This document shows, one piece after another, positions 481 to 56,257 of a stretch of 64,000 bases of DNA. The translations under genes and the position numbers were made by a program. Every line of letters starts with the position of its first letter. Within the stretch, counting starts at the first letter, position 1. Under the pieces are notes generated by a model. The model was not told the origin of the DNA and searched no databases. It worked only from the letters and a program-made list of their open reading frames with translations. The stretch spans positions 136,853 to 200,852 of the forward strand of contig CAWATZ010000006.1 of NCBI GenBank assembly GCA_963784995.1. The letters are read 5' to 3'. The stretch is from an uncultured Planctomycetota bacterium (GTDB lineage Bacteria > Planctomycetota > Planctomycetia > Gemmatales > Gemmataceae).

Positions 481-3006
481 TCAACGCCGGAACACGCCCA
501 GCAGGTTGGAAAACTCATCGGTCCACGTGCCGATCTCCGGTCGGGGCCGCAGAGTCCGCCACCGCGAATCCCGCGCCAGGTCCAGGCCGGCCGAGGGGCG
601 GGCCAGGACCACGAAAGTCGAGCGGGTCTTGCCGCGTTTGTCCTCCCCCTCGACGTCCGTGTCATACTGGACCCAGCCGGTCAACCCGGCCTGCTCGGCC
701 TGGTTGGCCAGCACCGGTTCGAGATCCAGATAGCGGTTAGAGACGTTATACACCAACCAGCCCCCCGGCTTCAACTTTTCCAGGTACAGTTTCAGAGCGT
801 CGAAGGTGATCAGATGGATCGGCACCGAATCGGAGCTGAAAGCGTCCAGGAACAGCAGATCGAACGAGTGATCCGGGGCTTCCTGAATCTGTAATCGAGC
901 ATCACCCAGGACCAGGTGCAAGTCCACGCCGCGGGCCCGGCAATCGGCCAGGTAGGTGAAGAAACGCGGGTTGTCGGCCAGCCGGACCACGGCCGGATCG
1001 ATCTCCCAGAAGGTCCACGCCTGGCCGGCCCTGGCATAACTGGCCATCGAGCCGATGCCCAGGCCGGCGACGCCGACCGTTCGCGGCGGGCTCACCTGGT
1101 TGCGCAGGGCAAAGAGCTGGCCGACCGGCCCGGTGCGATGGAAGTAGGTCAGCGGCTCGTCGCGGCGGGCGGGGTCGAGGCTCTGCCAGCCGTGCAGGGT
1201 GGTGCCGTGCAGCAGCCAGCGATACTCCCCGGTCGAATCCTGCTGCACGCACAGCTGGCCGTAGAAGCTGCGTTCGCGCCGCTCGACGTGGTCGCGCAGG
1301 TCGGCGGCGATCCCCGCGGCCAGCAGGACCGCACCGACCGCCAGGCCAAAGCGAACCGGCCGGCCGATCAGGGCAAAGCAAATGCCCACCGGCAAACCCA
1401 CCGCCCACAGCCAGAGGACCCAGGCCAGCAAGTCCTCGTTTTCCCGACCGAGAACGTCCATTTCCAGCTGATTGACGCGCAGGGCCCAGGCGATGATCCC
1501 GGTCAGCAAGCCCAGGGAAACCGGCGCCAGGAAGTCCGCGAGAGCAGGACGGGCTTCCCAGCCCGTCTCAAGGCCGTGGACACCTCGCCACTGGGAAGCC
1601 CGTCCTGCTCTCGCGGACTTCCCCGGGCAAACCAGGCAGGCGACCGTCAGGCCCAGCGGATATTCCAGTGTCCGGGTGAACACCAGCGGCGCCAGCAGGA
1701 CCACCAGCAGTCCGCCCACGACGCCACCCGCCGACATCCACAGGAAATACGCGGTCAGGTGGCGTGGGCCTGGCCGCTGCCGGGCCAGCTCGCCGTGGCA
1801 GACCAGGGCGATCAGGAAGAAGACGGCCAGGTGCAGTTCGATCTCGACGAGCAACGGGGCGCGCAGCCGGAGGACCATGAGGTAAACCAGGACCAGGACC
1901 AGGAGCGGCATCAGTCGGACCGCCCAGAAATGCAGCGAGGCGGCGAAGCGCACGTAGACCAGGATGAAACTGAGCAGGTACAACCCCAGGGGCAACACCC
2001 AGAGCAAGGGAATCGCAGCCACGTCTGTCGTGATGTGGGCCGTCACCGCAGGGAGCAGGGCGGCTGGAACCAGGCTGAGGAGCAGCCAGGAACGAATCGT
2101 GGACCAGGGGAAACGGGCGGGGGGAGGTGCCGAAGGAGCTGGCCGAGCCCCAGGGCGATGCCCGCAACACCCAGGGCGATGCCCTGGGCTATCCTGTTGC
2201 GCCGCTTCGGGGCGAAGACCGGCCTCTCTTTGCCCCGAAGGGGCGCAACAGGATAGCCCAGGGCATCGCCCTGGGTGACCTTGGGGCTCTTGGGTCTCTG
2301 TTCTTCTTGGTCCCTTCCCCCGGATTCCGACCGCCCAGCAGGCCCCAACCAGGAGCAGCAGCACGCCGTAACCCAAGGCCCAGAGCAGCGCTTGCTCGCT
2401 CCGGGTCAGGTTGGGTTCCAGCAGCAGCGGATAGGCGAGCAGGGCCAGCAAGCTGCCGGCGTTGCTGGCGGAATAGAGGAAATACGGATCGCCGGAGTCG
2501 GGATGGCCCGTGCTGGCAAACCAGCGCTGCAGCAGCGGCGCGGTGGTGCTGACCACCGTGAACGGGAGCAGGACCGTGACGGCCAGCAGGGCCAGCAGCC
2601 AGGGCAGCGGGGAGGTGTCGCACGGCGGCAGCCAACCCGCCGGCAGGGCGATGGGCAGGACCAGCAGCGGCAGTGGCAGCAGCACCAGATGCAAAAGCGC
2701 TTGCCGGCGCACTCCGAGCCAGGAAGTGCTGGCGTGAGCGTAGGCATACCCGGCCAGCAGTGCGGCCTGGTAGAATACCATGCAGGTGTTCCAGACGGCC
2801 GGCGATCCCCCCAGCAGCGGCAGCACCAGCCGGGCGAACAGCGGCTGGAGTGTGAAGAGCAGCGTGCTGCTGACAAAGAGCGTCATCGCGTACAGAACCG
2901 GAACCAGGACGTAGCCGGGGCCAGGACGCGACGGGTTCCGGGAGAGTGCGGTTTGCATGATTGGCCTCGGGGCCGGTTTCTTCGCGTTGTGGAACAACCT
3001 CGACAA
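481..3006 (-). CDS. polyamine aminopropyltransferase (spermidine synthase)-like C-terminal domain fused to a large N-terminal polytopic membrane domain
   Basis: 841 aa ORF. The C-terminal third (VGVAGLGIGSMASY...FLDAFSSDSVPIHLITFDALKLYLEKLKPGGWLVYNV) matches the spermidine synthase/SAM-MTase fold. The N-terminal half has many hydrophobic helices. The start may instead be the internal Met at 2958. Two palindromic insertions are read through in-frame (see repeats). Confidence 0.75.
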   Translation of the reverse strand: MSRLFHNAKKPAPRPIMQTALSRNPSRPGPGYVLVPVLYAMTLFVSSTLLFTLQPLFARLVLPLLGGSPAVWNTCMVFYQAALLAGYAYAHASTSWLGVRRQALLHLVLLPLPLLVLPIALPAGWLPPCDTSPLPWLLALLAVTVLLPFTVVSTTAPLLQRWFASTGHPDSGDPYFLYSASNAGSLLALLAYPLLLEPNLTRSEQALLWALGYGVLLLLVGACWAVGIRGKGPRRTETQEPQGHPGRCPGLSCCAPSGQREAGLRPEAAQQDSPGHRPGCCGHRPGARPAPSAPPPARFPWSTIRSWLLLSLVPAALLPAVTAHITTDVAAIPLLWVLPLGLYLLSFILVYVRFAASLHFWAVRLMPLLVLVLVYLMVLRLRAPLLVEIELHLAVFFLIALVCHGELARQRPGPRHLTAYFLWMSAGGVVGGLLVVLLAPLVFTRTLEYPLGLTVACLVCPGKSARAGRASQWRGVHGLETGWEARPALADFLAPVSLGLLTGIIAWALRVNQLEMDVLGRENEDLLAWVLWLWAVGLPVGICFALIGRPVRFGLAVGAVLLAAGIAADLRDHVERRERSFYGQLCVQQDSTGEYRWLLHGTTLHGWQSLDPARRDEPLTYFHRTGPVGQLFALRNQVSPPRTVGVAGLGIGSMASYARAGQAWTFWEIDPAVVRLADNPRFFTYLADCRARGVDLHLVLGDARLQIQEAPDHSFDLLFLDAFSSDSVPIHLITFDALKLYLEKLKPGGWLVYNVSNRYLDLEPVLANQAEQAGLTGWVQYDTDVEGEDKRGKTRSTFVVLARPSAGLDLARDSRWRTLRPRPEIGTWTDEFSNLLGVFRR
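1530..1622. repeat. intragenic hairpin element: 32-nt perfect inverted repeat, 28-nt loop, 93 nt total (31 codons), in-frame inside the 481..3006 CDS
   Basis: Arm 1 is ggaagtccgcgagagcaggacgggcttcccag at 1530-1561. Its exact reverse complement ctgggaagcccgtcctgctctcgcggacttcc is at 1591-1622. Confidence 0.85.
2148..2275. repeat. intragenic hairpin element: roughly 44-nt near-perfect inverted repeat plus a partial direct repeat of cccagggcgatgcc, inside the 481..3006 CDS
   Basis: cccagggcgatgccctgggctatcctgttgcgccgcttcggggc (2170-2213) pairs with gccccgaaggggcgcaacaggatagcccagggcatcgccctggg (2232-2275). The extra cccagggcgatgcc copy is at 2148-2161. Confidence 0.85.
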
Positions 3007-4588: not shown

Positions 4589-5914
4589 CCATCCCATTCC
4601 CCGGGAGTTCGTGAGCTAAGATTATTTCAGGCCGGACAAGAAACAGGCCAGAGAAGAAACCGCTTCGAGATCTCGGGGGAGGGGAAGGCCACGATGGGCA
4701 AGAGGCTGACGGCGACGTTCCTGGTAGCGCTGGTGTTGCTGCTGGGCAATGCGCTGGTGTCCTTCTGGAACGTCACCCGGGTGGTGGACCACGATCACCG
4801 GGTCGCGCACACCCACGAGGTCCTTGCCCAGTTGCGAGGGATCACGTCCGCCCTGTACGACGCCGAGGCCGGCCTGAGCAGCCATTTCCTGATGGGACGG
4901 GCCGAATCCCTCCGCCCCTGCGAGTTTGCCTTTGAGCGCGTGCCGGAGGCGCTGGCGAACCTGGAAAGCATGACGGCCGACAATCGGCGCAGCAGCAGCG
5001 CGTCCGCCGGCTCGGCCCTCTGATCCAGGAGCAGTTCGCGTTGATGCGGCAAATGATTGCTTTGCGCGCGAACCGCGGCCAGGGAGGCCGGGAGGCCCTG
5101 GCCCTGCGCGGACCGGGAAGGCGCAGACCCTCTCGCAAGAGATCCGCAGGCTGCTGGCCATGATGGAAGACGAGGAGAACCAGTTGCTGCGCCAGCGCGT
5201 TCCGCAGGCCCGGACCAGCACCCGGCTGACGTTCTTGACTTTGCTTGCCGCCACCATCCTGGGAGTCGCCCTGCTGGGCTTCGTCGCCCTGCTGACCTGG
5301 CGCGGCATCCACGATCGCCGGCGCGCCGAGGAGGAGCTGCGCCGCGGCCGGGACGAACTGGAGGTCCGGGTCGGAGAGCGCACGCTGGAACTGGCGTCGG
5401 CCAACGTGCGGCTGCTGCGGGAAATCGAGGAGCGCCGCCGGGCCGAGCTGGCCCTGCGAGAAGCCAAGGAAACCGCCGAGGCGGCCAGTCGGGTCAAGAG
5501 CGAGTTCCTGGCCAGCATGAGTCATGAGATCCGCACGCCCATGAACGGCATTCTCGGCATGGTGGAAGTGCTGCTGGATACGGACATCACGGTTGAGCAA
5601 CGCGAGCACCTCGCCATGATCCAGACTTCCGCGGAAGCCCTGCTGGCGATGATCGACGACCTGCTGGATTTCGCGAAGATTGAGGCGGGCAAGGTTGACC
5701 TCGACCCGATCGCCTTCCATCTCCGCGAGACCCTGGGCGATACCCTGAAACTGCTGGAAGTGCGCGCCGCAAGAAGGGACTCTGTCTGGCCTGCCGCATT
5801 CAGCCGGACGTTCCCGAAACCCTGGTGGGCGACGCTGGCCGGCTCCGCCAGGTCCTCATCAACCTGGTGGGCAACGCCATCAAGTTCACCGAGAGGGGCG
5901 AAGTGTTCGTGGTC

Positions 5915-5972
5915 GCAGGACAGGCAGCCTTGCCTGTCCTGGGCGTTGGGACAGGCAAGGCTGCCTGTCCTG
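5915..5972. repeat. intragenic double hairpin (ggacaggcagccttgcctgtcc and its reverse complement ggacaggcaaggctgcctgtcc) in-frame in the histidine kinase
   Basis: Direct reading of 5915-5972. Encodes [21 protein letters not shown], between the N-box and G1 box of the HATPase domain. Confidence 0.8.
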
Positions 5973-6220
5973 CGGGAGTGGAGCTCCATTTTGCCGTCTG
6001 CGACACGGGCATTGGCATCCCGACCGACCGGCAGCGCGTGATCTTCGACCCGTTCACCCAGGCCGACGGCTCGGTGACGCGCCGCTACGGCGGCACCGGA
6101 CTGGGCCTGTCCATCTCCTCGCGCCTGGTCGAACTGATGGGAGGTCGGATCTGGGTGGAAAGCGAAGTGGGCCAGGGCAGCACTTTCCACTTCACCGCGT
6201 GCTTTGCTCGGTGCCCCTCG

Positions 6221-6348
6221 GAAGATGACAAGGTGACAAGGTGGCAAGGTGACAAGGTGACAAAGACCGAAGAGCCAGAACTGGGGGCTTCCTCCGCGGC
6301 TTCTTCTGTCACCTTGTCACCTTGTCACCTTGTCACCTTATCATCTTC
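6221..6348. repeat. intragenic 128-nt palindrome built from 8-mer tandem repeats (gacaaggt x5 on one arm, accttgtc x4 on the other), in-frame between the HATPase and receiver domains
   Basis: gaagatgacaaggtgacaaggtggcaaggtgacaaggtgacaaag ... tctgtcaccttgtcaccttgtcaccttgtcaccttatcatcttc. Encodes EDDKVTRWQGDKVTKTEEPELGASSAASSVTLSPCHLVTLSSSD. Confidence 0.85.
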
Positions 6349-7430
6349 AGACGGGCTGCGAATCCTGGTCGCGGAAGATAACGCGATCAATCAGGTGGTG
6401 GCCCGGCAAATGCTGGAGAAGCAAGGCCATCAGGTCGAAGTGGCCAGCAACGGCAAGGAGGCCCTGGCCGCACTGGAACGGCAATCCTTCGATCTGGTGC
6501 TGATGGACGTGCAGATGCCGGAAATGAGCGGCTTCGACGTGACCGCCGCCATCCGGGCCCGGGAGAATGGGAGCGGGCGGCGCCAGCCGATCATCGCCCT
6601 GACCGCCCATGCCATGAAGGGCGACCGGGAGCGGTGTCTGGAAGCGGGCATGGACGGCTACCTCTCCAAGCCGATCCAGGCGTGCGAACTCTCCCGGGCC
6701 ATTGCCCTGGTGGTCGGCGGGAAGCAGCAAGTCCCCGGGAGTGCCAGGCCGGTTCGCCCTGACCCGGCAGCTGACGCAGCCGGGCACCCGCTTGCGGGTC
6801 TGCCACCGGCCGGGCGGAACACCCACGTCCTGGACCGCGCCGCCACTCTGGAGCGCTACCGTGGCGACCTCTCCTTTGTCCAGACCCTCGCGTCCCTGCT
6901 TGTCGAGGAGTCTCTCCGCTCCCTGGCGGAGATGCGGGATGCCCTCCGGGGTAAGGAAGCCGACCGGTTGGGGCAGGTGGCGCACAAGTTCGTCGGCGCC
7001 GTGAGCAGCTTCGTCGCCCCGGAGGCAACCGAGGCGGTCCGGCAACTCGAAGCCCGGGCCAAGGCGGGAGACTTGCCAGAGGCGGGCCAGGCGCTGGCAA
7101 CCTTGGAAGTAACCCTGGCCCGGCTGACCGCTGCCCTGGGTGAGCTGCAACAAGGGCCCGAACGCGTTGGCGCGGGCTGAGTTCGAGGACCACTCCTGTC
7201 GATGAACTGGAGTCGGCGGCACAGGAGTCCCACCTGACAGCCGAGCAGTTGCAACGGCTCTATGAAACGGTGTGCGGTGAATCGGAGACTGGAGCCGCAG
7301 GCGATCAGAGGGATAGCACACTTCGTCTCCGCCCGATGTTGCTGGAGATCCTGGTGCGATTGTTCGGCAAGGCTCCCGGCAGTGACCAACGCCAGGGACA
7401 GTCGTGACGTGCAGTCAGCGGAGAGTTTCA

Positions 7431-8713: not shown

Positions 8714-11380
8714 TCACTGCAATCCCAGTCCCACGCGGACAACTCCGCTCTCGACCGCGACCGGCTCGCTGAACCCCAGGGAGCGCGTCAGCTCCAGCAT
8801 GGGCCGGTTCTCCGCCAGGATCACACCCGATAGCCGTTTCACCCCGCGTTCGCGGGCAATGTCGATCAGCCGCCGCAGCAAACAGCGGCCCAGTCCCTGG
8901 CGCTGGAACGGATCGCTGACCACCAGGGCGAACTCGGCCGTTCCCGTCTCCGGAGTGAGGTAGTAACGCGACACGCCGATCATCTGGGCGTTGTCACCCT
9001 CCCCCCGCACCGCCGCCAGGGCCATCTCGCGGTCGTAATCGAGATGGCACAGCCGGATCAGGCTGTCCCGCGACAGTGTCTTGACCATGCTGAAGAAGCG
9101 CATCCGGATGGTGTGTTCCGAGTGCCCCGCGTGCAGCTTGACGATCAGCGGCTCATCCTCCGGACGCACCGCCCGGATGGTCACGCTGGTGCCATTGCGA
9201 AGGGTGAAGGGAGCGGTGTACTGGTTCGGATACGGATGGATTGCCAGCTGGGGAGGCGGCGTCCCGGGAGGACTGAGGAGCACGCGGGCGTCCAGGGCGA
9301 TCAGGCGCTCGGGGCTGGCCAGCAGCGGATTGACGTCGATCTCCTGGATCTCGGGGAAGTCCACGACCAGCTGGCTGAAGCGGACCAGCAGCGTTTCCAG
9401 GGCCTCGGCGCTGACCGGCTTCTGCCCGCGCACCCCCTTGAGGGCCCGGGCGATCTTGGTCCGCTCGATCTGCCGGCGGGCCAGGGTGCGGTTGAGCGGC
9501 GGCAGAGCCAGGGCGCGGTCCTGCAGCACCTCCACCAGGATGCCGCCGGCACCGAAGAGGATCACCGGACCGAACTGCCGGTCGATGGAACTGCCCACGA
9601 TCAGCTCGAACCCCTTGTCGCGGATCATCGGCCCGACGGTGACGCCGTCGAACGCCTGGCTCAGGTTGCGGGATTGCAGATTGGTCCGGATCTGCTCGAA
9701 GGCGGTACGCACGGCACGCTCGTCCGGCAAGTTCAGCTGGACGCCGCCGACGTCGCTCTTGTGCGTGATGGTCGCCGACAGCAGCTTCAGGACCACGGGA
9801 TAGCCAATCCGATTACTCGCTTGCACTGCCTCGTCGGCCGACCGGCAGGGGATGCTCTGCGCGACCGGCAGCCCGTACGCCGCCAGCACCTCCTTGGCCT
9901 CGGACTCGGTCAGCAGCAGGCGATTCTGGGATCGAGCGGTCTGGATCAGCTGGCGAACCCGGTCGCTATCCAGTTTGAGATCGGCCGGCAACGCCTCGGG
10001 CCGTTCGTACAGGGCCTCCTGACTGCGGCGATACTGGACCATGTGCAGGAACGCCTGGATGGCCGCCTCGGGGGACTGGAAGGTCGGAATCCCGGCGGAA
10101 CTCAGCACTTCCCGGCCGGCCCGGACCGCGGCCCCGCCCATCCAGCAGGTCAGGATCGGCAGCTCGCCGTGGGCGACCGAAGCCAGAGCCCGGGCCGTCT
10201 CGGTCGGATCGGTCATGGCCTGCGGCGACAGCAGGACCAGCAGGCCGTTGACGTTGGGGTCCTGGGCGCAGGCTTCCACGGCCCGCCTGCAGCGTTCCGG
10301 CGTGGCGTCACCGAGCAGGTCCACCGGGTTGCCGTGGCTCCAGAAGGGTGGCAGGGCGGCGTTGAGGGTGGCCAGGGTCTTCTCGCTCAGGGCGGCCAGC
10401 TGGCCGCCGGACAGCATCAGAGCATCGGTGGCCATGACGCCAGGACCGCCCGCGTTGGTGAGGATGGCCAGGGCCGGGCCGCGCGGCGGCGGTTGCAGGG
10501 CGAGGATCTCCGACATGTCGAACAGGTCGGGGATGGTATCGACGCGCAGGATGCCGGCCCGGCGGAAGGCGGTGTCGAAGACGGCGTCGGACCCGGCCAG
10601 GGCCCCGGTATGCGAGGCCGCCGCCTTCGCCCCGGCCTCGTGCCGGCCCGACTTGACCACGATCACCTGCTTGGTCCGGGCCACGCTCCGGGCGGCGCTG
10701 AGGAACTTGCGCACGTCGCCGATCGACTCCACGTACAGGATGATGCTCCGCGTTTGCGGTTCGTCGGCGAAGTAGTCGATCAGGTCGGCCAGGTCCACGT
10801 CGATCATGGCCCCGACGCTGACAAAGCTGCTGAAGCCGATGTGCTTTTCCTCGGCCCAGTCGAGGATGGCAGTGCAGATGGCGCCGCTCTGGCTGAGCAG
10901 GGCGACCTTGCCGGGCCGGGCCATGCCGGCGGCAAAGCTGGCGTTGAGGTTGCTCGGCGGATGGATGATCCCCAGGCAGTTCGGCCCGACAATCCGCATC
11001 CGGCCGCGGGCAATGGTGCGCACCTGCTGCTCCAGCTGCCGGCCCTCCGCTCCCAGCTCCGAGAAACCCGCGGAAATGATGATCGCTCCCGGGATGCCGC
11101 GCTCGACGCACTGCTTGACCAAGGCTGGCACCGTCGCCGCAGGCGTGGCAATCACGGCCAGGTCCACGACCTCGGGCACCGCTGACAGATCGGGATAGGC
11201 CAGGACGCCGTGAATCGCCCGGCGTTTGGGATTGACCGGGTAGACCACGCCGCCAAAGGGGTTGGCCATCAGGTTGCGCATCAGGATGCTGCCGACGCTG
11301 CCGGGCGTGCCGCTGGCGCCCAGCACGGCCACCGAACGCGGTTTGAAGATCGGATCGAGGGAGTGACGGATGGTAGCCAT
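8714..11380 (-). CDS. bifunctional acetyl-CoA synthetase (ADP-forming, CoA-binding + ATP-grasp)/GNAT N-acetyltransferase, Pat/PatZ-like protein lysine acetyltransferase
   Basis: 888 aa. N-terminal CoA-binding domain (SVAVLGASGTPGSVGS...IVGPNCLGI), a central succinyl-CoA-synthetase-like/ATP-grasp region, and a C-terminal GNAT domain (FALVVSDPFQRQGLGRCLLRRLIDIARERGVKRL). Confidence 0.8.
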   Translation of the reverse strand: MATIRHSLDPIFKPRSVAVLGASGTPGSVGSILMRNLMANPFGGVVYPVNPKRRAIHGVLAYPDLSAVPEVVDLAVIATPAATVPALVKQCVERGIPGAIIISAGFSELGAEGRQLEQQVRTIARGRMRIVGPNCLGIIHPPSNLNASFAAGMARPGKVALLSQSGAICTAILDWAEEKHIGFSSFVSVGAMIDVDLADLIDYFADEPQTRSIILYVESIGDVRKFLSAARSVARTKQVIVVKSGRHEAGAKAAASHTGALAGSDAVFDTAFRRAGILRVDTIPDLFDMSEILALQPPPRGPALAILTNAGGPGVMATDALMLSGGQLAALSEKTLATLNAALPPFWSHGNPVDLLGDATPERCRRAVEACAQDPNVNGLLVLLSPQAMTDPTETARALASVAHGELPILTCWMGGAAVRAGREVLSSAGIPTFQSPEAAIQAFLHMVQYRRSQEALYERPEALPADLKLDSDRVRQLIQTARSQNRLLLTESEAKEVLAAYGLPVAQSIPCRSADEAVQASNRIGYPVVLKLLSATITHKSDVGGVQLNLPDERAVRTAFEQIRTNLQSRNLSQAFDGVTVGPMIRDKGFELIVGSSIDRQFGPVILFGAGGILVEVLQDRALALPPLNRTLARRQIERTKIARALKGVRGQKPVSAEALETLLVRFSQLVVDFPEIQEIDVNPLLASPERLIALDARVLLSPPGTPPPQLAIHPYPNQYTAPFTLRNGTSVTIRAVRPEDEPLIVKLHAGHSEHTIRMRFFSMVKTLSRDSLIRLCHLDYDREMALAAVRGEGDNAQMIGVSRYYLTPETGTAEFALVVSDPFQRQGLGRCLLRRLIDIARERGVKRLSGVILAENRPMLELTRSLGFSEPVAVESGVVRVGLGLQ

Positions 11381-11412
11381 GCGATCCTCGCAAAACAGTC
11401 CGGACCAGAGCC

Positions 11413-11496
11413 GACGAGCCGCCGCTTCGATTTATCGTTTCGCGTTCGGCCACAAGTCGGCGAACGCGAAACGATAAATCGAAGCGGCGGCTCGTC
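11413..11496. repeat. REP-like intergenic palindrome, family 1 (core cgatttatcgtttcgcgttcg...cgaacgcgaaacgataaatcg), copy 1 of 3
   Basis: 36-nt perfect arms gacgagccgccgcttcgatttatcgtttcgcgttcg / cgaacgcgaaacgataaatcgaagcggcggctcgtc. Related copies at 45914..45962 and 56171..56257. Confidence 0.9.
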
Positions 11497-11501
11497 GGAC
11501 A

Positions 11502-15160: not shown

Positions 15161-15359
15161 GAACACCTCAACAGATTTACGACCCCTCCAGCCCTGGCTG
15201 GCCGTGCAGGCACGGTTGTCCGGCAGGTGAAGGAGGTCACCAGCTAGAGGAAGAAGCAAGAACTTTTTTTCTTTTCTCCCGTCTAGCCAATGACCTGCTT
15301 CACCTGCCGGACAACCGTGCCTGCACGGCCAGCCAGGGCTGCTGGGGCCGGAGAAGCGG

Positions 15360-30687: not shown

Positions 30688-30776
30688 GGCCGAGCCGCGC
30701 ACGCAGCGCAGCGGAGTAAGCGGTGCGGGAGCCTGCAGGGCCGCTTACTCCGCTGCGCTGCGTGCGCGGCTCGGCC
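30688..30776. repeat. 36-bp perfect inverted repeat (ggccgagccgcgcacgcagcgcagcggagtaagcgg / ccgcttactccgctgcgctgcgtgcgcggctcggcc) with 17-nt loop, between the kinase gene and the MVP gene
   Basis: Direct reading. Possible terminator/insulator or REP-like element. Confidence 0.8.
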
Positions 30777-45834: not shown

Positions 45835-45859
45835 GGTCCTGTCTCCGTTTCGGGCTTTC

Positions 45860-46010
45860 TTTCTCCCCTCTCCCCTTGAGGGAGAGGGGGTGGGGTGAGG
45901 GGAAGAGCCTGGCTGATTTATCGTTTCGCACTGATCCAGGTGAGCGCGAAACGATAAATCGAAGACAACCCTTCACCCCCAAACCCTCTCCCTCAAGGGG
46001 AGAGGGGAGA
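45860..46010. repeat. composite nested palindrome: CCCTCTCCC hairpin, family-1 REP core (tgatttatcgtttcgcac...gcgcgaaacgataaatcga), CCCTCTCCC hairpin
   Basis: 45866-45890 cccctctccccttgagggagagggg; 45914-45962 REP core; 45984-46007 ccctctccctcaaggggagaggg. Lies between the paralogue-3 stop and the paralogue-2 start. Confidence 0.85.
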
Positions 46011-46020
46011 AGGATCTCCG

Positions 46021-50398: not shown

Positions 50399-50559
50399 CT
50401 TTTGCCGATTTGGAGTGCGGCAGTAGCTTTGCTCTGCCGCTTTTGTTTCTTCTGTTGGTTTTTGTTTCTTGGACTGGCCTAACAAGGGAAAAGCAAAAAC
50501 AAAAGACCAAACAAAAGCGGCAGAGCAAAGCTACTGCCGCACTCCATAATCGGCAAAAG
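50399..50559. promoter_or_regulatory. AT-rich 160-bp nested palindrome (about 47-bp near-perfect outer stem, each arm containing its own gcggcag...ctgccgc hairpin), 200-360 bp upstream of the gntR operon start
   Basis: tttgccgatttggagtgcggcagtagctttgctctgccgcttttgtt pairs with aacaaaagcggcagagcaaagctactgccgcactccataatcggcaaa. Local GC is far below the window average, with ttttgtttt runs. Confidence 0.45.
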
Positions 50560-54422: not shown

Positions 54423-54500
54423 GAAATGGCGAGCGGCGCGGCGTCAGCCCGCCGGTAAGGGCTTCCTACCGGCGGGCTGACGCCGCGCCGCTCGCCATTC
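54423..54500. repeat. family-3 palindrome (about 37-bp arms, gaaatggcgagcggcgcggcgtcagcccgccggtaagg / ccttaccggcgggctgacgccgcgccgctcgccatt); degenerate relative at 36863..36966
   Basis: Direct reading. Shares ggcgagcggcRcggcgtcagcccgc with the 36863 copy. Confidence 0.8.
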
Positions 54501-56170: not shown

Positions 56171-56257
56171 GACGAGCCGCCTCTTCGATTTATCGTTTCG
56201 CGTTCGCCCACAAACCAGTGAACGCGAAACGCTAAATCAAATGCCCGCCGCTCGTCG
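56171..56257. repeat. REP-like palindrome, family 1, copy 3 (right arm partly degenerate)
   Basis: gacgagccgcctcttcgatttatcgtttcgcgttcg...gaacgcgaaacgctaaatcaaatgcccgccgctcgtcg. Confidence 0.85.

Follow-up and report, generated by a model that had tools for sequence, protein, structure and literature searches.

An octamer-built palindrome read in frame as a kinase linker: probable copy of a hairpin-forming repeat dispersed across Planctomycetota and other phyla

Palindromes that remodel proteins by lying in frame within genes are classically a curiosity of Rickettsia, and a few cases built from REP sequences are also known. REP/REPIN doublets are reportedly mobilised by RAYT transposases, as Bertels and Rainey are said to have found in 2011. 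A different class of repeat, the simple sequence repeats (SSRs) of contingency loci, belongs to the phase-variable genes of Haemophilus, Neisseria and others. In the account given in PMC3733652, the Rickettsia palindromic elements (RPEs; Ogata et al. 2000) lie in frame in functional genes, at loops or linkers, and are translated. In-frame inserts of the GTAG/CGTC-tagged REPs are documented as well, for example in uvrA of Opitutus terrae (PMC3733652). SSRs with long units include the STRR heptamers of heterocystous cyanobacteria, the repeats GGGAATC and GGGGA(C/T)T that occur in Xanthomonas and Nostoc (PMC4692102), and the TAACTGA repeats of Beggiatoaceae, cyanobacteria and Bacteroidetes (PMC4679880). 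The paired tandem octanucleotides of Geobacter metallireducens (GTTGCTYN; TWGTTGAY) are putative binding sites of global regulators (PMC2700814).

The element described here is a palindrome of tandem octamers within the gene of a hybrid histidine kinase, located in a 64-kb stretch of DNA that was analysed as a whole (the window). It resembles the RPEs in belonging to a family of short palindromes of which some copies lie in frame in genes and are read as extra peptide. It differs from them, as far as they are described in the cited account, in its phylum, in its arms of tandem octamers instead of unique sequence, and in the intergenic position of most copies. With REP/REPIN sequences the family shares the inverted doublet that gives a long hairpin, the multi-copy and mostly extragenic distribution and the lack of a target-site duplication. 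In contrast to these, its arms are made of tandem units whose number varies, it carries no GTAG/CGTC tag and no association with a RAYT was seen. The long-unit SSRs are similar in having tandem units of 7–8 nt that are mostly intergenic near the 3' end of the upstream ORF, sometimes form inverted pairs and are common to distant phyla. The motif GGTGACAA, the period of 8, the foldback with conserved termini and a sub-lineage that is compatible with ORFs and resides within genes are different. The Geobacter sites also have 2–4 tandem octamers per strand, inverted pairs at variable distance and tens of copies per genome, but with another motif and in another phylum; their octamer pairs were not reported inside genes, whereas GGACCGG heptamers were (PMC2700814). 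An in-frame tandem repeat with a unit that is not a multiple of three is also typical of contingency loci, unlike the short, interrupted tracts, the palindromic pairing and the identical sequence in unrelated genes. Finally, MITEs have terminal inverted repeats as well, but no target-site duplication was seen in the present family and its centres are mostly unrelated. By function, the closest parallels would be the RPEs and the in-frame REP inserts, and by architecture the REPIN doublets and the Geobacter sites. As a repeat class, the octamer family is, by analogy, placed beside the long-unit SSRs that occur in cyanobacteria, Xanthomonas and Beggiatoaceae.

The octamer tract is present at 6221–6348 as the first-pass annotation gave it, and its description as both a palindrome and a microsatellite is correct. 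Tandem Repeats Finder detects two arrays of period 8, at 6222–6263 (5.2 copies, 91 % matches) and at 6307–6347 (5.1 copies, 93 % matches). Each arm consists of five tandem units of the GGTGACAA type with variants such as GATGACAA, GGTGACAG and GGTGGCAA. Parsed in the GGTGACAA phase, the left arm is GATGACAA GGTGACAA GGTGGCAA GGTGACAA GGTGACAA and the right arm, once reverse-complemented, is GATGATAA GGTGACAA GGTGACAA GGTGACAA GGTGACAG. The purine-rich left arm (6221–6263, + strand) starts with the terminal GAAGAT, continues with GACAAGGT-type units and encodes EDDKVTRWQGDKVT. The pyrimidine-rich right arm (6307–6348, + strand) comprises four perfect copies of TGTCACCT followed by the terminal TTATCATCTTC and encodes VTLSPCHLVTLSSS. 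The longest perfect runs are two units in the left arm and four in the right arm. The arms are connected by a central spacer of 43 nt (6264–6306, + strand), which encodes KTEEPELGASSAASS. The termini of the element are GAAGATGAC and GTCATCTTC, without a GTAG or CGTC tag, and together with the arrays they constitute terminal inverted repeats. The element also carries the string GAAGATGACAAGGTGACAAGG.

The inverted repeat exceeds the 128 nt originally proposed. Its arms (6208–6262 and 6307–6361) are 55 nt long each and 89 % complementary; in the 14 nt beyond the arrays, 10 of 14 positions pair (p ~0.001 against random positions of the window). The complete palindrome at 6208–6361, composed of the outer flanks, the two octamer arms and the centre, corresponds to a single hairpin of ~150 nt. 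The whole region is one stem because the 43-nt centre is partly self-complementary. For the RNA of 6205–6365, a folding energy of -104.4 kcal/mol is calculated, compared to -51.5 ± 4.2 kcal/mol in shuffles (z -12.6). On the receiver side, the palindrome reaches ~14 nt into the codons for the conserved start of the domain, and a simple insert therefore does not account for that part. A two-unit pattern with up to three mismatches has seven matches in the window, all of them inside the element (mean of 0.33 in shuffles; none of 100 shuffles reaches seven). No second copy of the element was found with this pattern in the 64-kb window.

The host gene (4694–7180, + strand) was delineated by Pfam and three-frame translations. 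The ORF at 5825–7180 contains the domains HATPase_c (residues 2–125), Response_reg (residues 180–293) and Hpt (residues 356–437), and Pfam detects HisKA and a fragment of CHASE3 in the region 5' of this ORF. The protein is thus a hybrid kinase with the domain order CHASE3-TM-HisKA-HATPase_c-REC-Hpt. In the assembly sequence, its frame is broken by three apparent 1-nt deletions near 4985, 5110 and 5770. Two essential genes of the window are broken as well. When proteins from two related contigs are aligned by tblastn, four frame pieces are found for a class II aminoacyl-tRNA synthetase (16881–15363) and two for an FtsX permease (15160–13729), both 78–95 % identical to their relatives. Indel errors of the assembly are therefore the best explanation for the breaks in the kinase, whose gene, as the comparison of these sequences suggests, is probably intact. 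The earlier remark that the gene is frameshifted elsewhere holds for the assembly sequence, with its three deletions, but not in the sense of decay. For the same reason, the kinase as a pseudogene was considered and rejected.

The source organism belongs to the Gemmataceae. All matches of the neighbouring ACS/GNAT protein that have taxon names belong to Gemmataceae or Planctomycetota (71–73 % identity), and the closest matches are up to 84 % identical. Relatives with the neighbouring ACS/GNAT-Usp-aminotransferase block lack the kinase and are not syntenic at its position, and an empty site was not found in them. An orthologous kinase without the element was not found among the protein homologues, which are at most ~54 % identical (~50 % for the best ones), and a degenerate pattern of the left flank has zero matches in the metagenome contigs. 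In P0023, the closest homologue of the same architecture (48 % identity), the linker is 28 residues shorter. The ATPase loop of P0023 holds a heptamer-like DKGQGTRDKGQGT.

The proposal that the tract forms an in-frame linker between the catalytic and the receiver domain is confirmed by the translation and by the domain limits in Pfam. In the frame of the kinase, the tract reads EDDKVTRWQGDKVTKTEEPELGASSAASSVTLSPCHLVTLSSSD and is located between HATPase_c and Response_reg. This frame alone can be read through the element: stops interrupt both other + frames and every - frame, while the right arm taken separately (6307–6348) has zero stops in all + frames. In a perfect (GACAAGGT)3, each of the three frames contains a TGA. 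The only one of these triplets that would fall into the kinase frame is that of the third unit, and the sequence found there is TGG (Trp; 6242–6244, + strand). The unit GGTGGCAA thus replaces the single in-frame TGA of the purine-rich arm and makes this arm readable in the kinase frame. In the pairing map, the exchange accounts for the only asymmetric G:T position within the stem. In an AlphaFold2 model based on an alignment of 40 sequences, pLDDT is below 50 exactly for residues 132–175 (nt 6218–6349) and above 90 for most of the domains that flank the linker. On this basis the element is taken as a disordered interdomain linker; according to the model, it is translated straight through as a stretch of ~44 disordered residues, EDDKVTRWQGDKVT...VTLSPCHLVTLSSS. 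As in RPE-like inserts, a copy of a repeat lies in frame in the linker of an otherwise conserved protein gene.

Copies of this module are present in other genes. A phmmer search of the full library with the 44-residue linker peptide yielded P0270–P0273. P0270 is a Wzy_C/TPR protein of 858 residues that contains EDDKVTRWQGDKVT...VTLSPGHLVT. Its DNA (locus L212) reads GAAGATGACAAGGTGACAAGGTGGCAAGGTGACAAGGTGACAAA and matches the window base for base across the whole left arm. The LPG-synthase fragment P0271 contains DDKVTRWQGDKVT...VTLSPCHPVTLSS, P0272 carries the same module and P0273 has two module copies, in which W is replaced by G and R. The codon of the third unit in these proteins is TGG, GGA or CGA. 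At the DNA level, 37 nt (6221–6257), including the terminus and the GGTGGCAA unit, are identical to 4357–4393 of L212 and to 1748–1784 (- strand) of locus L058. The inner junction GCTTCTTCTGTCACCTTGTCACC and the 3' part of the centre, GCTTCTTCTG, are common to the window and L212, whereas the centres of different copies are otherwise mostly unrelated. In L058, a Gemmataceae contig, the 37-mer follows in frame directly after a Caa3_CtaG domain within a stop-free ORF of 833 residues; the right arm of this copy has decayed. Both copies, in L212 and in L058, are in frame with the same phase as in the kinase.

An independent screen for arrays with at least 100 open codons on both sides led to two further loci where the array lies in frame, both in domain-bearing ORFs. 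In L074, an AcrB-family ORF of Gemmataceae, the in-frame peptide is TEDDKVTRRQGDKVKGRFPFFGHLVTLSPLHLVT, the outer end CGGAAGATGAC and the phase are those of the window, and the TGA of the third unit is changed to CGA. In L075, which encodes a Formyl_trans_N protein in a Chloroflexota bin, the peptide is EDVTLSPCHLVTLSSS and one pyrimidine-rich arm only is present, between AGAAGAT and ATCTTCT. A target-site duplication was not found; the flanks of the window copy, L212, L058, L074 and L075 have no direct repeat in common when read from the sequences. The genic copies share one phase because the five-unit arm has a single TGA in that frame alone. An arm of 37–45 nt that is identical in three unrelated genes argues for the copying of a pre-existing element and against independent local slippage. 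Furthermore, the different repair of the third unit (TGG, CGA or GGA) argues that an open frame was selected for or acted as a filter. As judged from the shared sequence, the window copy belongs to a sub-lineage with GGTGGCAA as the third unit, which is also in frame at two other loci.

For a census of the family, one genome per species was scanned for (GACAAGGT)3. At least 119 loci were found in these species-representative genomes, in many phyla and mostly between genes. The first-pass annotation had regarded absence of the tract elsewhere as evidence against a switch; the tract is present elsewhere, which points to a dispersed repeat and not to a switch. Repeats of this kind are normally intergenic and are frequent among Planctomycetota, Chloroflexota, Bacteroidota and further phyla. 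Carriers among the matches listed are Gemmataceae, Zavarzinella, Phycisphaerae, Tepidisphaeraceae and many Chloroflexota, as well as Saprospiraceae and other Bacteroidota, Verrucomicrobiota, Acidobacteriota, Longimicrobiaceae and cyanobacteria. Isolates among the matches listed include Zavarzinella formosa DSM 19928, Tolypothrix and Floridaenema. Single genomes have 4–7 loci among the matches listed, and several loci are located on multi-megabase contigs. In the searchable literature, no two-unit (16-nt) string of the repeat was found in the registers tried. A phage origin was rejected, as the tract occurs in only four IMG/VR contigs.

The arrays at the listed loci mix the related units GGTGACAG, GGTGAGGG, GGTGACGG, GGAGACAA and GATGACAA and comprise 3 to 33 units. 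Such variable lengths between loci indicate that slippage does act on the family over evolutionary time. In 836 kb of listed loci, tandem arrays of period 7 (n = 180) and period 8 (n = 221) are far more numerous than those of period 6 (n = 30) and period 9 (n = 31). The listed arrays are essentially intergenic, and upstream ORFs often stop at a TGA within the array. A protein search with the peptide of the right arm found only tiny ORFs without domains. The genes around the listed arrays, as determined with a crude ORF caller, show no strong bias in orientation (26 ++, 20 --, 8 convergent and 6 divergent). A Shine-Dalgarno-like role in the 5'-UTR, suggested by the resemblance of AAGGTGA to such a site, was dropped because of this lack of a strong bias. 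Clustering of the ORFs within 1.5 kb of the arrays at the at least 119 loci revealed no recurring transposase-like gene, and a related IS was not identified. The only recurrent family there are Ser/Thr kinases, a background family in these phyla. By eye, the arrays of L104 and L112 appear to lie directly upstream of a small four-helix-bundle-like gene; the ORF in L112 has no Pfam match. The phase of the array starts and ends shows a suggestive pattern, which is confounded.

The arrays obey a strict polarity. Among the loci listed, all 31 inverted pairs within 300 nt have the order (GACAAGGT)n...(ACCTTGTC)n (p 9e-10), and the element in the window has the same head-to-head order, 5'-(GACAAGGT)n ... 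(ACCTTGTC)n-3'. If all adjacent 7–8-mer arrays of opposite purine skew are considered, the purine-rich array precedes the pyrimidine-rich one in 79 cases and follows it in 7. Pairs of unrelated, non-complementary motifs follow the same rule (40 vs 7). Thus, the polarity does not reflect pairing. A barrier of stops in all frames was tried as the basis of the polarity and rejected: stop triplets on the purine-rich strand of 166 other motifs are not significantly more frequent than their composition predicts (72 vs 65 ± 4.8, p 0.08).

Taken as a whole, the locus is best explained, with a probability of about 0.68, as one copy of a dispersed, non-coding, hairpin-forming repeat that serves as a passive in-frame linker and is not a programmed switch. 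The typical family member would consist of two head-to-head arrays of ~5 GGTGACAA-type octamers each, with the termini GAAGATGAC...GTCATCTTC and a short variable centre. By analogy with REP/REPIN sequences or MITEs, the copy may have arrived by copy-and-paste or recombination, and the family as a whole would have spread in a similar mode. Presumably, the copy persisted because it landed in a loop and in the only frame where removing a single stop was enough. Its effect on the kinase would be a passive one, namely a longer linker. The very stable hairpin in mRNA or DNA may additionally slow ribosomes or attract RNase III.

An alternative is that the stem is kept as a functional cis-acting nucleic-acid structure. 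It might be a processing site, for example for RNase III, that uncouples the kinase core from REC-Hpt, a translational pause, or the platform of a factor that recognizes GGTGACAA. The hairpin is very stable, the mirrored outer units GATGACAA and GATGATAA maintain pairing, and the one arm difference by which the frame is opened is G:U-compatible. Moreover, the IMG/VR contig L123 has four hairpins with the same layout of 2 + variant + 1 units between co-directional genes. The occurrence of the octamer in many phyla and the proposed role of the Geobacter octanucleotide pairs as regulator binding sites (PMC2700814) would also fit. On the other hand, the element contains no intrinsic terminator or promoter pattern, and Rfam yields no family match at the element, just sub-threshold generic matches to microRNA hairpins. 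The lack of a strong bias in the orientation of the flanking genes and the polarity of non-complementary array pairs, which pairing cannot have caused, likewise argue against a functional stem. We consider such a function unlikely.

There is also a broader, equally tentative and rather doubtful proposal. The GGTGACAA foldbacks and the 7–8-mer array pairs might both result from an undescribed polar process that acts across phyla, with the GGTGGCAA lineage as a form adapted to the genes of Gemmataceae. A new kind of non-autonomous mobile element would be one candidate for this process. The other would be that purine-rich sequence is synthesised reiteratively from the two 3' ends of a DNA break, in a geometry resembling telomere fusion. 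If such a process exists, it would have added one disordered module, EDDKVTRWQGDKVT...VTLSPCHLVTLSS, to unrelated proteins of Gemmataceae.

The first-pass annotation suggested that the tract could be a phase-variation switch. In such a contingency locus, slipped-strand mispairing would toggle between the full hybrid kinase and a truncated kinase without REC and Hpt. The premise is sound insofar as the 8-nt unit is not divisible by three and lies inside coding sequence together with the rest of the tract: the gain or loss of one unit does shift the kinase frame, and a shift into either other frame meets a TGA within the left arm. The slippage that is evident from array lengths between the listed loci is also compatible with this idea. 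However, contingency loci require a long uninterrupted tract, and perfect runs here comprise just two units in the left and four in the right arm. The family is mainly found between genes, where the reading frame is irrelevant. Over 9.8 kb, the IMG/VR contigs L121 and L123 share 99.7 % identity, with 27 substitutions and no indel; the three octamer hairpins common to both agree in their number of units, and a single base is exchanged in one of the arrays. The base-for-base identity of the left arm in three unrelated genes is unexpected for a hypermutable tract. The host is neither a surface nor a restriction-modification gene, since the tract occupies a cytoplasmic linker of a sensor kinase, and the gene probably only seems frameshifted owing to errors in the assembly. 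A switch is thus very improbable.

A further explanation is an origin in place. The palindrome would then be the scar of a break repair or template switch, in which both 3' ends were extended by repeated addition of purine-rich 7–8-mers and then joined. This would account for the strict polarity, both within the family and among 7–8-mer pairs in general including those of unrelated motifs, for the unrelated centres without target duplication and for the predominance of periods 7 and 8. The 37-nt arm that is identical in three genes and the common inner junction are better explained by copying. To our knowledge, no enzyme adds purine-rich 7–8-mers reiteratively to both 3' ends of a break, and an enzyme for such an addition was not found here. 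For the window copy we judge an origin in place to be highly unlikely. Finally, an artefact of the long-read metagenome bin is next to negligible in spite of the clear 1-nt indel errors of the assembly, since the ORF stays open across the element and on into the REC and Hpt domains, which are well conserved, the identical arm occurs in independent assemblies from other assemblers (L058 is a k141 contig, L212 an ENA contig) and arrays of the family, though not the W-type arm, are present in isolate genomes.

With the element read as a copy of a dispersed repeat, the main interest lies in the family, with its spread across phyla, its strict polarity and a sub-lineage that lies in frame inside genes. 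A repeat that is different from the RPEs and REPs, built of octamers, strictly polar and common to many phyla would thereby remodel proteins in Planctomycetota and Chloroflexota that are free-living. Its stop codon is repaired variously (TGG, CGA, GGA) across five or more unrelated protein genes. A searchable handle on the origin and spread of bacterial 7–8-nt tandem repeats is provided by the termini GAAGATGAC...GTCATCTTC, by the rule of polarity and by the sub-lineage that is compatible with ORFs. The octamer foldbacks are also flagged as a source of low-complexity linkers in multidomain proteins. In genome annotation, such tracts and nearby frameshifts in long-read bins should not be interpreted as phase variation or pseudogenes unless evidence at the read level is available.

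The kinase contains a second, unrelated palindrome in frame. It is located at 5914–5974 in the variable loop of HATPase_c and is an inverted doublet of the REP-like hairpin GGACAGGCAAGGCTGCCTGTCC, with arms of 26 nt that are 100 % complementary. Its folding energy is -66.7 kcal/mol (z -11.5), and the pLDDT in the AlphaFold2 model falls below 50 at residues 36–44. An exact 22-mer of its family is found in 86 metagenome contigs. The family has a GTAG tag (TACG after the copy) in 92 of 111 copies, and for 66 an inverted partner lies no more than 90 nt away; the copy of the window itself reads GCAG...CTGC. A member of a GTAG-type REP doublet family thus sits 250 nt upstream of the octamer element in the same kinase.

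The hybrid histidine kinase carries a second in-frame palindrome, located at window 5914–5974 in the variable loop of the HATPase_c domain. It consists of GGACAGGCAAGGCTGCCTGTCC arranged as an inverted doublet. Its exact 22-mer is contained in 86 metagenome contigs, many of them apparently from soil samples. A GTAG tag is present on 92 of the 111 copies in these contigs and an inverted partner lies 31–68 nt away from 66 of them. Given this tag and the inverted partners, the repeat is a REP/REPIN family of the classical GTAG type. In the window copy, GCAG...CTGC takes the place of GTAG...CTAC. In P0023, a related hybrid kinase of the same domain architecture, the same HATPase_c loop contains PAEDKGQGTRDKGQGT (residues about 340–362). 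At the protein level, this segment would correspond to the expected translation of a (GACAAGG)n heptamer array.

An ORF on the minus strand (481–3006), free of stops along its length, contains two more long palindromes. The palindrome at 2168–2277 has 51-nt arms with 96 % complementarity, and the one at 1530–1622 has 32-nt arms with 100 % complementarity. Both appear to be translated in-frame. The encoded product resembles a multi-pass membrane protein whose C-terminus is weakly methyltransferase-like. The right arm of the 2168–2277 palindrome is matched by the Rfam family Acido-Lenti-1 RNA (2231–2275, minus strand) with 40.1 bits, compared to a gathering score of 37.

Long hairpin palindromes, mostly intergenic, are unusually abundant in the window. 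Additional ones with arms of 33–69 nt are located at 11411–11498, 15180–15350, 30688–30776, 45858–46014, 50411–50546, 54425–54499 and 56184–56241. The sequence TTCGATTTATCGTTTCGCG is common to a small palindrome family at 11411–11498, 45915–45960 and 56184–56241. The copy at 45915–45960 is nested within another palindrome, which is made of TCTCCCC/GGGGAGA heptamers.

Hairpins built from tandem octamers, as found in the kinase, also occur in IMG/VR contigs. A contig of 12.4 kb (L123) contains four of them (713–798, 1274–1360, 8995–9089 and 10670–10755) and shares three octamer hairpins with contig L121. In all four hairpins of L123 each arm has two units followed by a variant unit and then a single unit, and the loops are formed by an A-run/T-run. 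Judging from the flanks, these hairpins appear to be positioned between co-directional genes, directly 3' of the preceding stop codon.

In two other loci an octamer array is found immediately 5' of a small ORF, namely in L104 from Longimicrobiaceae (about 2200–2627) and in L112 from Planctomycetota (1215–1683). The ORF of L112 is flanked on both sides by inverted octamer arrays. Judged by eye only, the small ORF resembles a four-helix bundle of the 23S rRNA IVS protein type; a Pfam scan of the L112 ORF gave no family at E ≤ 0.001.

Adjacent tandem arrays of 7–8-nt units have a preferred polarity. Among the array-bearing loci L001–L123 the purine-rich array precedes the pyrimidine-rich array on its 5' side, on either strand, in 79 versus 7 cases. 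Neither stop-codon content nor hairpin formation explains this rule. The same order is observed for unrelated motif pairs (40 versus 7).

Several window genes are interrupted by apparent 1-nt frameshifts. On the minus strand, an aminoacyl-tRNA synthetase (16881–15363) is split into four frame pieces and an FtsX permease (15160–13729) into two. The kinase has three such breaks (about 4985, 5110 and 5770), each of which fits the loss of one base from a two- or three-base run. Breaks of this kind are typical of the indel errors of a long-read bin, and they cut short gene calls of the source record, for example that of the 380-residue P0001.
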